64,000 nucleotides of DNA from Candidatus Latescibacterota bacterium (GTDB lineage: Bacteria > Latescibacterota > UBA2968 > GCA-2709665), in the NCBI GenBank assembly GCA_965226795.1, contig CBDDDZ010000002.1, positions 480,001 through 544,000 on the forward strand, written 5' to 3'. Of this stretch, positions 2,942 to 5,524 are shown piece after piece. A model generated the notes under the pieces. It was not told the origin of the DNA and ran no database searches. It worked only from the letters and a program-made list of their open reading frames with translations. Position 1 is the first letter of the stretch; each line of letters starts with the position of its first letter. A program made the translations under genes and the position numbers.

Positions 2942-2969
2942 TTGACAATAGGGTCCATTCGTTTATATT
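2942..2969 (+). promoter_or_regulatory. Putative sigma70 promoter for lnt-tatC
   Basis: TTGACA-N16-TATATT in the divergent intergenic region. Confidence 0.5.
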
Positions 2970-3114
2970 CTAAGCGGGTTTTTGGGGTGGGTATCAACCG
3001 TACCGGTTGGCGGGACTCACTGCTTGCGGCCAACCGGTTTTTCTGTCCCGAAACCCGAACCGTGAAAACGCGGCCCGTGAAGTACCGGCAGAAGGGTTCG
3101 GAGGAACCGGAGTT

Positions 3115-5436
3115 ATGACGGAGGCACGGCAGGGCGCAGACTGGAAATGGATGGTGCTGTTTCCGGCGGTTTCGGGCCTTGTCCTGGGCGCGGCATTCCC
3201 ACCCCTGCCCATGGGTTTCCTGTCTTACGTGGCGCTTATCCCGCTGCTGATTTCGGCGGAACGGCTGTGCGGCCGTGCGGCCTTTGGCGCCGGTTTCGTT
3301 CAGGGGATATTTTTCTACGGAGCGACACTTTACTGGATCGGTTGGATCACGCCCCCCGGCATGGCCGGGGCGGTTTTTTACATGTCCCTGTTCCGTGGGC
3401 TGTTTTTGTGGACGTTCGCCCGCGTCGTGCGGCGGTACGGCGCCACGGGCATGTGGAGCGCGCCCTTTCTGTGGGTTGGGTTCGAGTATTTCAATTCTCT
3501 GGGAGACATGGGGTTTCCATGGGTGGTGCTTGGTAATTCGCAGACGGCCTATCTGTGGCTGATCCAGTATGCTGAAGTGACGGGGGTATATGGGGTTTCG
3601 TTCTGGATTGTAGTGGTCAATCTGAGCGTACTGATGCTGTGGAGGAACGGAGCGCGGCGCTGGGCTTGGGCTGCCGCGGTGGCGGCGCTTTTTGCGGGAC
3701 CGGCGGCGAACGGGTATCTGGCGCTGAAGAATGATTCTGATCAGCAGGCCGTGCCGGTGGGTGTAGTCCAACCGGATATGCCTCCGGTGGCCAAGGAATA
3801 CAGGGGATTCGATTACAATTTCGGCAAACTGAAGCCGATGACAGTGGAAGCCGCGGGGCAGGGGGCGAAGCTTGTGGTGTGGCCCGAGACGGCGGTCGGC
3901 TATATGAAAGGGGAACTGTACCGGCACCATCGAGAGCAGGTGCAGGCGATGGTGGACTCGCTGGGCATCTACCTTCATACGGGCGCGTACCGACTGGTGA
4001 CTGGCGACCCGGTAAAGGTGTACAACTCCTCGTTTCTGTTCGTGCCCCAAAAGGGGATCACGGGATACTACGATAAAACTCGCCTGGTGCCGTTCGGCGA
4101 ACGGGCGCCGTTCCCGGATTTGCTGCCCTTTCTGAGGAAAACCCGGTTCACCGGCGGCGGGTACGTGGGGGGCAACTGGGATTCCGGAGAGACGCGGACG
4201 GTTTTCAATGGCCCCGAGGCCCGGTTCTCCGCGCTAATCTGTTACGACTCGGTTTTTCCGGGATTTGTCCGGTCCTTTGTGGACCGGGGCGCGGAGTTTC
4301 TGGTCGTTATTACCAACGATGGCTGGTTCGGTCGCACTTCCGGACCCTATCAGCATGCCGAGGCGGCTGTGTTTCGCGCCATCGAGAACCGGCGGGACGT
4401 GGTGCGCTGCGCGAATACAGGTGTGTCCACGTTTATCGACGCCTTTGGACGGAAGTCGGGGACAACGGGAATTTTCCATCCGGCCGTGTTGACTCACGGC
4501 GTGGTGCCACGAAGCGCAAAGACGTTTTATACGAGGTACGGAGACCTGTTCGCGCAGCTCTGCCTGGTTCTGGGCGCGCTTCTGGTGGTGATGGCCATCC
4601 GCCGGCACACGATGGATGCAACGCCGTCGATTCTGCCCCCGGACGCCGAAACTCCCGGCCGACGCACCCCCGAACCGTCCGAGCGTGGGGACGACAAGGC
4701 GATGCCCTTTCTGGATCATCTGGAGGAACTGCGATGGCGCATATTAAAAGGGTTGGCGGCCCTCGTGTTCGGCGCCGTGATCTGCGGGATATTTTCGGAC
4801 AGCATCCTCGGTTGGCTTGTGTTGCCGGTTCGCGACGTGACCCCCGTAATGGAGTGGTTGGGCGTGGCGCCGGTTGAACCGCCCGTCAAGCTTATATATT
4901 TGAAACCGATGGGGATGTTTCTCGTCAAATTTCAAATTTCCCTGGTGGGCGGCGCGATCCTGGCGTTGCCGTTTCTCCTGTATCAATTGTGGATCTTCGT
5001 TGCTCCGGGTTTATTGAAATCGGAGCGGCGGTACGTATCTTTTATTGTTTTTTCGTCGACGGTCTGTTTTGTTCTGGGCGGCGCCATTGCCTACGTGAGC
5101 GTGGTGCCGCTGTCGTTTCGATTCCTGATTCTGATCGGCGAGGGGACCGGCGTCGACCCCCAGTTCGATATCGGCTACTACATCGGCTTTGTGCTGAGAC
5201 TGCTGGTGGCCTTCGGTGTTGTCTTCGAACTGCCGGTAGCGGCGTTTTTCCTGAGCCGGATCGGCCTGTTGACCGCGGATCGAATGCGGCGCGGCCGGCG
5301 GTATGCGGTAGTGATCGGCTTTATTCTGGCTGCCCTGCTCACGCCTCCGGACCCGATCTCCCAACTCCTGATGGCGCTGCCGCTGGTGCTGCTTTACGAA
5401 TTCAGCATCTGGGTGGCCCGGGTCGCCGGCAGATAA
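3115..5436 (+). CDS. lnt-tatC: Fusion of apolipoprotein N-acyltransferase (Lnt) and twin-arginine translocase TatC
   Basis: Lnt triad VVWPET / YDKTRLVPFGE / ICYDS, TNDGWFG; TatC from 4702: MPFLDHLEELRWR, YQLWIFVAPGL, FELP, TPPDPISQ; no stop between; ATG 3115 with GGAG upstream. Confidence 0.9.
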   Translation: MTEARQGADWKWMVLFPAVSGLVLGAAFPPLPMGFLSYVALIPLLISAERLCGRAAFGAGFVQGIFFYGATLYWIGWITPPGMAGAVFYMSLFRGLFLWTFARVVRRYGATGMWSAPFLWVGFEYFNSLGDMGFPWVVLGNSQTAYLWLIQYAEVTGVYGVSFWIVVVNLSVLMLWRNGARRWAWAAAVAALFAGPAANGYLALKNDSDQQAVPVGVVQPDMPPVAKEYRGFDYNFGKLKPMTVEAAGQGAKLVVWPETAVGYMKGELYRHHREQVQAMVDSLGIYLHTGAYRLVTGDPVKVYNSSFLFVPQKGITGYYDKTRLVPFGERAPFPDLLPFLRKTRFTGGGYVGGNWDSGETRTVFNGPEARFSALICYDSVFPGFVRSFVDRGAEFLVVITNDGWFGRTSGPYQHAEAAVFRAIENRRDVVRCANTGVSTFIDAFGRKSGTTGIFHPAVLTHGVVPRSAKTFYTRYGDLFAQLCLVLGALLVVMAIRRHTMDATPSILPPDAETPGRRTPEPSERGDDKAMPFLDHLEELRWRILKGLAALVFGAVICGIFSDSILGWLVLPVRDVTPVMEWLGVAPVEPPVKLIYLKPMGMFLVKFQISLVGGAILALPFLLYQLWIFVAPGLLKSERRYVSFIVFSSTVCFVLGGAIAYVSVVPLSFRFLILIGEGTGVDPQFDIGYYIGFVLRLLVAFGVVFELPVAAFFLSRIGLLTADRMRRGRRYAVVIGFILAALLTPPDPISQLLMALPLVLLYEFSIWVARVAGR

Positions 5437-5524
5437 GCCGGGCATTCGGCCGCGGACGTCCGATACGCGACCGCGCGGGAACACTTTGCAGCGGCTGTAT
5501 AAATTGACAAGGGATTGTTTTTTT

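Follow-up and report, generated by a model that had tools for sequence, protein, structure and literature searches.

An in-frame fusion of apolipoprotein N-acyltransferase to the Tat receptor TatC in a class of Latescibacterota

The window analyzed here, a stretch of 64,000 nucleotides from a Candidatus Latescibacterota bacterium (assembly GCA_965226795.1, contig CBDDDZ010000002.1, positions 480,001 to 544,000), carries a single gene that joins apolipoprotein N-acyltransferase (Lnt), which attaches the final fatty acid to lipoproteins in the last step of their maturation after Lgt and LspA, in frame to TatC, the universal receptor core of the twin-arginine (RR) translocase Tat. The natural Lnt-TatC fusion reading frame is real. 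Its coding sequence occupies positions 3115..5436 of the forward strand, as 773 codons and a TAA stop (5434-5436), inside an open reading frame (ORF) that runs without interruption over 3007..5436, and its translation contains no internal stop. An earlier note on this DNA, made from the letters alone, had described one ORF holding a complete Lnt and a complete TatC, a linker of about 30 residues rich in proline and charge, and no adjacent tatA or tatB. This description is borne out by the stop-free frame of 773 amino acids (aa) with full-length family matches, by a linker of 31 aa (residues 499-529) that is acidic and proline-rich, and by the single TatA_B_E match of the genome, a gene of 74 aa, being located on another contig. 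We regard as probable, with some room for doubt, that the joining is a tolerated or mildly advantageous fusion for co-expression and co-localization, analogous to the mycobacterial Lnt-Ppm1.

The Lnt half looks like an ordinary, fully functional enzyme for which N-acylation is predicted. It is composed of a membrane domain of seven helices (residues 1-205, 3115..3729), a periplasmic nitrilase-like domain (residues 213-470, 3751..4524) and a last transmembrane (TM) helix, H8 (residues 478-498, 4546..4608), ending in a basic IRRH, all on the forward strand, as are the other features of the gene given below. Pfam LNT_N (20-170) and CN_hydrolase (216-446) are both matched above their cut-offs, and the NCBIfam equivalog lnt TIGR00546 scores 326.1 bits (cut-off 132.9) over residues 64-446. 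The half aligns end to end with the solved E. coli Lnt (21-496 to residues 24-508 of chain 5xhq_A), which pairs E258, K321, and C376 (codons 3886-3888, 4075-4077, and 4240-4242) with the catalytic E267, K335, and C387; all 82 of the fused proteins compared, aligned at 39-91% identity to the protein of the window, keep the triad unchanged. An AlphaFold2 (AF2) model of the whole fusion, built on this 82-row alignment, has a mean predicted local distance difference test score (pLDDT) of 82.5 and a predicted template modelling score of 0.72. The Lnt part, helices 1-7 included, is mostly above a pLDDT of 90, and the strands of residues 213-463 are placed between helices 179-205 and 478-495. The eight-TM layout, in which the nitrilase domain sits between H7 and H8, is thus matched by both the AF2 pattern and the alignment to the solved Lnt, the orientation in the membrane being one that we infer. 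Passages of PMC5500888 describe E. coli Lnt with eight TM helices, cytoplasmic N- and C-termini and an H8 that ends in the cytoplasm.

The TatC half (residues 530-773, 4702..5433) likewise looks like an ordinary and fully functional receptor with six predicted TM helices, and transport is predicted. The complete Pfam TatC profile PF00902 (1-208 of 208) is matched at residues 534-756 with an E-value of 1.2e-67 and 228.2 bits (cut-off 25.1), and the NCBIfam equivalog tatC TIGR00945 scores 201.9 bits (cut-off 132.7). An end-to-end alignment to Aquifex TatC 4b4a_A (1-243 of the half to 1-231 of the chain) places M530 on residue 1, and E538, F628 (4996-4998), and E637 (5023-5025) align with E15, F94, and E103 of E. 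coli TatC (9dzz_A). F94 and E103 are given as key residues for binding of the twin-arginine motif in the relevant passages of a 2026 review (PMC13673990). Across the 82 fused proteins F628, E637, M530, and a TPPDP motif are invariant, and E538 is conserved in at least 90%. The expected TatC helices appear in the AF2 model from residue 532 onward, with pLDDT mostly 70-89.

TatC proteins have a cytoplasmic N-terminus. Since the C-terminus of Lnt is cytoplasmic as well, the two ends that are joined would share that side of the membrane, and the linker between them (residues 499-529, 4609..4701, sequence TMDATPSILPPDAETPGRRTPEPSERGDDKA) is predicted to be cytoplasmic. Residues 499-528 have a pLDDT below 50 between two confident domains, and as a prediction of topology the AF2 helix patterns fit an Lnt and a TatC with a disordered tether between them. 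Over the 82 fused proteins the linker measures 19-95 aa (median 35) with a net charge of -21 to 0 (median -6), a proline content of 16% and an aspartate plus glutamate content of 26%, and its sequence shows no conservation. The linkers of f4, the sister family within the class (see below), carry variable counts of acidic 'EADHD'-like repeats. Those of its genus g25 (L141, L145, L171; P0078, P0111) contain short acidic repeats such as 'E-A-D-H-D', 'PEVDHD' and similar in variable copy number, and close relatives there have linkers of lengths that are tens of residues apart, a pattern suggestive of replication slippage in a little-constrained region.

The junction is repeated in independent data. 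A contig of 7909 nucleotides (nt) from a run of another study spans 3000-5440 with 1 substitution and 0 indels, a contig of a further DNA run spans 4191-5199 with 0 differences, and a contig from an RNA library spans 4227-4843 with one synonymous change, so that the stretch 4590-4710 is bridged by both independent DNA contigs and an RNA-library contig; such contigs show presence and continuity, not transcript starts, ends, or expression levels, and DNA carry-over is possible in RNA libraries. A stop-free match over the junction was obtained in 40 of 40 relatives searched, and all 120 best database proteins hold TatC and CN_hydrolase in one chain. A stop codon after ...AIRRH, which the earlier note had named as fatal to its claim, is absent in the window, in the bridging contigs and in all 53 genomes of the order of the window, and a stop at the equivalent position is present in unfused sister lineages. 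The runs that hold the region 3000-5500 (X7-X17) include several labeled 'sponge metagenome' together with metatranscriptome libraries, from three studies, and RNA libraries contain the region too; the organism seems to turn up repeatedly in such sponge-labeled communities.

The start codon of the fusion is likely ATG 3115, because a Shine-Dalgarno (SD)-like GGAGG...GGAG (3100..3112) precedes it and because same-genus relatives match residues 1-773 of the fusion, the start included. With an anti-SD motif that we take to be the appropriate yardstick, this signal has a duplex energy of -9.5 kcal/mol, and only 2.1% of the 18375 internal ATGs of the genome score that low. A promoter-like site (TTGACA, 16 nt, TATATT; 2942..2969, forward strand) with 11 of 12 matches was located further upstream by a consensus scan only.

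A search of related genomes finds the same fusion throughout the order and in part of the sister family. In the GTDB class of the window 129 of 132 genomes have a TatC match, each at a single locus. All 53 such genomes of the order (families f1 and f2) are fused, with open frames of 713-841 aa (one, G019, is cut by a contig end); none of the 3 genomes of family f3 is fused, and in the sister family f4 the count is 32 of 73. The fused f4 genomes belong to g25 (25 of 29), g30 (2 of 2), and g31 (5 of 10, with G126 counted as fused), the remainder of g31 being three unfused genomes and two cut by contig ends. The 41 of the 73 f4 genomes without a fused frame mostly have separate genes, three being cut or split records; in most unfused f4 genomes tatC directly follows lnt, and a few have the two genes 1.5-31 kb apart. 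In genus g21 a block of about 6.7 kb lies between lnt and tatC (G102:C1:6825400-6835025; L158/L192) and carries genes for a PEP-mutase-like protein and a PhyH-family dioxygenase besides several ORFs without a Pfam match; it looks like an insertion into an ancestral lnt-tatC pair.

Adjacency of lnt and tatC was found only within this Latescibacterota class. No TatC was found in the DNA retrieved downstream of lnt in 15 genomes of other classes of the phylum, 13 of which have at least 2.5 kb of downstream DNA, nor within up to 3 kb of lnt at 44 loci of other phyla. When 1.84 billion representative proteins were searched, only two full-length fused representatives (P0027 and P0090) stood among the best 150, where any fusion from elsewhere that matches both halves would be expected to rank. 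Some fused proteins are recorded under 'Gemmatimonadota', and a second phylum was considered on the strength of these labels and rejected, as same-genus metagenome-assembled genomes at 86-88% identity carry either label. Genomes of this kind from the genus of the window (86-91% protein identity; L040, L041, and L045 against L030-L044) are deposited as either Latescibacterota or Gemmatimonadota, and the taxon names on database matches to the fusion are not reliable.

In the order, the fusion is flanked by a class I/II aminotransferase in the upstream place and a Na/Ca exchanger downstream, and the sister-family pair (L181-L187, L192) is always preceded, divergently, by RadC-like JAB and bifunctional-nuclease/UVR proteins. 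No conserved Tat, lipoprotein, or envelope-biogenesis neighbor of lnt-tatC was found among the loci compared.

The unfused relatives suggest how the joining came about. Among 29 adjacent unfused pairs, 23 could be parsed for stop and start offsets, and in 20 of these an ATG in the tatC frame lies -17 to +12 nt from the lnt stop, with five ATGA overlaps; on its layout this arrangement is the geometry of translational coupling. The unfused TatC proteins begin with an acidic segment of 15-60 aa, which is followed by an invariant 'MPFLDHLEELRW'. Seven of the unfused pairs are in the same frame with a single TGA or TAG between the genes; these were considered as read-through candidates and rejected, since 7 of the 29 adjacent pairs do not exceed the one third expected by chance. 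Where the window has M500 (4612..4614, in 'H-TMDATPS'), unfused relatives read '*AMDADD', '*TMPADE', or '*SMAEEE', and by this comparison M500 would be a relic of the ancestral tatC start. It is not conserved within the genus of the window (TMDA, PADA, SAVA, TVDT), and its ATG at 4612 lacks an SD-like sequence (-1.7 kcal/mol).

A tree built on Lnt and TatC together for 76 genomes (quick LG+G4 search with SH-aLRT support; L112 omitted and L104 classed as unfused) places the fused rows in four separately supported clades, namely the order, g30, and parts of both g31 and g25, and requires at least 4 changes of state, in which gains and losses are inseparable without a species tree. The linkers of the four fused clades are unrelated in sequence. 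We infer that the fusion recurs by merging of a translationally coupled lnt-tatC pair. The ancestor of the class would already have had lnt and tatC as a two-gene unit, with the start of tatC overlapping or abutting the stop of lnt, and its TatC would have carried a short acidic N-terminal extension that became the linker once the stop was lost or the frames merged. Such merging would have happened at least 3-4 times, with one fusion fixed in the whole order of the window.

What the fused protein has to do can be read in part from the rest of the genome (5.4 Mb, 95.9% complete). A profile search of it found no other TatC and no other true Lnt, one of seven matches passing the Lnt cut-off; as the sole Lnt and the sole TatC, the fused protein must supply all of both activities. 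One LspA and two Lgt paralogues are present, neither fused nor adjacent to lnt-tatC. The Lgt paralogues are at G000:C4:622333-623064 and G000:C5:1916362-1917105, with 233 and 114 bits, respectively, and tatA (L002:1489-1713) is found downstream of a CDP-alcohol phosphatidyltransferase gene (L002:302-1018) on the same strand, about 470 nt away. ORFs with a lipobox of the Sec type number about 138 by a crude heuristic that probably over-counts.

For Tat substrates, the profile TIGR01409 (TAT_signal_seq) gave 5 matches over its cut-off and PF10518 gave 1. A first scan by regular expression returned 232 candidates, mostly false, and was dropped; a stricter heuristic scan gave 77 rows, from which 8 candidates were chosen by eye, a subjective selection. 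They include PhoX, a molybdopterin oxidoreductase and a Rieske protein with RR signals, as well as binding proteins and a dioxygenase-like protein. A lipobox follows the RR signal in 2 of the 8, and 6 are without one. The two, a DctP-type binding protein (G000:C3:310533) and a heparinase II/III-like protein of 1027 aa, are also the two best TAT_signal_seq matches, and Tat-lipoproteins probably exist in this genome. With a TatA-family gene and RR-signal substrate candidates, partners for the TatC half are present and transport is predicted. Tat-lipoproteins, as far as these predictions go, are a small part of the clientele of either half.

Under the favored reading, a tolerated or mildly advantageous fusion, the gene would produce a bifunctional inner-membrane polypeptide, presumably left uncleaved in the cell, of an eight-TM Lnt with its periplasmic nitrilase domain, an acidic proline-rich tether of about 30 aa, and a six-TM TatC. 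Each half would keep its usual job and the two activities would be mechanistically independent, the Lnt half N-acylating all apolipoproteins after Lgt and LspA, and the TatC half, together with the single TatA, receiving all twin-arginine substrates. The fusion would chiefly enforce 1:1 co-synthesis, co-insertion, and co-localization, and would be tolerated because a long, flexible tether connects two termini that are both cytoplasmic.

A parallel is Ppm1 of M. tuberculosis as well as M. bovis BCG (Rv2051c/BCG_2070c), in which, according to passages of PMC3850990, an N-terminal Lnt likewise carries a partner on its cytoplasmic C-terminus. The same passages report that the Lnt and Ppm genes are separate and adjacent in M. 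smegmatis (MSMEG_3860/3859) and C. glutamicum (ppm2/ppm1), and that Ppm activity persists after deletion of the Lnt domain. The partner in Ppm1 is a soluble polyprenol-monophosphomannose synthase domain acting in lipoprotein glycosylation, a related pathway, whereas here it is a six-TM translocase receptor with no known lipoprotein maturation step.

Several points weigh against this reading. The adjacency of lnt and tatC across the class and the recurrent fusion may mean more than co-expression, and 2 of about 8 Tat candidates are lipoproteins. The tether comes out beside the RR-binding face of TatC (E538/E637), where a bulky eight-TM neighbor might matter. The tree behind the recurrence is a gene tree of the very genes in question and has two outgroup rows inside the ingroup.

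According to the earlier note, the fusion may link the Tat-dependent export of folded lipoproteins to their N-acylation. In this explanation Lnt is tethered to the Tat receptor and N-acylates folded Tat lipoproteins (class II) at the site of export, and we consider it unlikely. The class-wide pairing of lnt and tatC is the best reason to consider coupling: it is conserved across the class, with fusion recurring at least 3-4 times. It is joined by the lipobox cysteine after the RR signal in the two best TAT_signal_seq matches, by the presence of only one TatA/B-family gene in the genome, and by the recognition of Tat-dependent lipoproteins as a substrate class in passages of PMC13673990. On the other side, Lnt is the third of three steps and the enzymes of the first two are neither fused nor adjacent, the sole Lnt and TatC serve the roughly 138 Sec-type lipobox ORFs and the six lipobox-less Tat candidates, fused frames are missing from the 41 sister-family genomes noted above, and the conserved neighbors include no Tat or lipoprotein gene. 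Nor was a dedicated Tat-lipoprotein module found, with a lipobox in 2 of 8 Tat candidates by a custom heuristic and Lgt and LspA unlinked. What still speaks for the proposal is the existence of Tat-lipoprotein candidates and the class-wide pairing; a predominance of lipoproteins among Tat substrates is not borne out by the count, and the coupling itself gained no positive support.

In a broader form of the coupling idea Lnt is a physical partner of the Tat receptor complex throughout the class. Lnt would then be a genuine component of that complex, its eight TM helices docking on TatC, which would explain both the coupled pair and the recurrent fusion; we hold this to be less likely still. It could take two forms, one in which Lnt possibly occupies a TatB-like scaffolding place next to a single TatA/B-family gene, and one in which it possibly acylates Tat-exported lipoproteins as they leave the receptor. 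If true, the acidic tether at the RR-binding face may help to capture or release the basic n-regions of signal peptides. A complex prediction of Lnt (1-498) against TatC (528-773) from the 82-row alignment, made without controls, returned 0.00 and has no bearing either way.

Lower again in our estimation stands the explanation that the single ORF yields two proteins, either because TatC is also or only started from the internal ATG at 4702 or because the linker is cleaved after insertion. Two observations give it weight at the expense of an intact fusion: M530 is invariant in all 82 fused proteins and in 73 of 73 parsed ones (of 121 proteins, 73 were parsed for M530 and for comparison of linker starts), and it aligns with the initiator methionine of Aquifex TatC. 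A methionine is not universally required here, E. coli TatC having a glutamine at the preceding position, the linker is disordered and exposed in the AF2 model, and two RNA-library contigs end at 4686 and 4693. M530 is, however, equally invariant in unfused relatives and sits within a wholly conserved block (P531, F532, L533, H535, L536, and others), and a consensus scan found no promoter-like site just upstream of the TatC part, before 4702.

All 53 genomes of the order also keep the frame open across a linker that lacks sequence conservation, whereas only 16 of 38 off-frame readings of the linker DNA (two for each of 19 parsed loci of 32 fused) are free of stops, a rough baseline that is circular for loci chosen as fused and drawn from lineages that are not independent. 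Ahead of ATG 4702 the SD-like signal is unremarkable, its -5.5 kcal/mol ranking at the 20th percentile among internal ATGs. A signal of -6 kcal/mol or lower is found in 14% of 49 fused loci against an internal-ATG background of 13.6%, and in 39% of 18 unfused-class rows (including L038, a fused gene truncated at the end of its contig) and 33% of the first ATGs of long ORFs; this comparison depends on an assumed anti-SD motif and on loci that are few and in part redundant. With a background-level SD-like signal and a decayed M500, the evidence, which is indirect, is against TatC being made only from ATG 4702.

The ends of the two RNA contigs coincide with a motif shared with other organisms, and another RNA-library contig bridges 4227-4843. 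Around this place (window 4686-4742), the contigs that several other organisms have in these runs match only 4701-4742, the stretch encoding 'MPFLDHLEELRW', and the organism's own contigs break at 4686 and 4693 in one RNA library (run X7), which fits the conserved motif acting as an assembly branch point. The X7 break was accordingly rejected as a transcript boundary, the short contigs of other organisms (records 12-14 and 17) mapping only to 4701-4742.

An artefact, in which faulty sequencing or assembly would have erased a stop between two genes or put them into another frame, is scarcely credible: some relatives do differ from the fused state by one in-frame stop, but independent runs from other studies repeat the junction without indels, the 40 relatives and the 53 genomes of the order are all fused, many of them in single-contig genomes, and the 120 best database proteins agree.

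Compared with other known arrangements, the unfused pair of sister lineages in the class (L101-L116, L120) resembles the fusion, with the same genes in the same order and the same invariant motif preceded by its acidic segment, and it differs in that Lnt ends at a stop and tatC begins at a separate start codon, which overlaps that stop or is a few bases away from it, giving two polypeptides. The stand-alone Lnt of E. coli (5XHQ/5N6H) and the TatC of Aquifex (4B4A/4HTS) and E. coli (9DZZ) share the key residues with the two halves; the fusion is unlike them in its covalent join and in a TatC without a free N-terminus. The 14-TM TatCt of haloarchaea, described in passages of PMC13673990, is also a natural TatC fusion that adds transmembrane mass. 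It joins TatC to TatC through two extra helices, with both units lacking F94/E103, while in Lnt-TatC the receptor is joined to an unrelated enzyme and keeps F628/E637. Fusions of Lnt to SNase, PAP2, or LEA_2 in other organisms (P0188, P0162, and P0190) indicate that Lnt fuses readily, and none has a translocase as partner. Two Lnt proteins of about 830 aa (P0170 and P0173) carry a C-terminal extension of about 340 aa without a Pfam match.

Full-text searches, with subscription-only papers outside their scope, found no paper describing an Lnt-TatC fusion. A term search of the main text of the 2026 review on Tat evolution (PMC13673990) gave no 'Lnt' or 'acyltransferase', and among 12 of 13 places that matched fusion terms the haloarchaeal TatC-TatC is the only TatC fusion. 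Public records name the fused proteins solely 'apolipoprotein N-acyltransferase' or solely 'TatC', and a name-based survey would score the genomes with the fusion as lacking one of the two functions.

The only TatC of this organism would thus be tethered at its N-terminus, beside the RR-binding site, to a 55-kDa enzyme of eight helices, in an arrangement that is stable across an order. For the Tat field this is a natural experiment in how much extra membrane mass the receptor oligomer tolerates and where, and lipoprotein research gains from it a second example, following the mycobacterial Lnt-Ppm1, of an Lnt with a partner on its cytoplasmic tail. Close relatives with fused, single-stop, overlapping, and separated forms offer a ready-made comparison for any link between Tat and N-acylation. 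If the two activities are unlinked, the family would be a clean case in which translationally coupled genes for membrane proteins fuse repeatedly and almost neutrally, and a caution against inferring function from 'Rosetta-stone' fusions.

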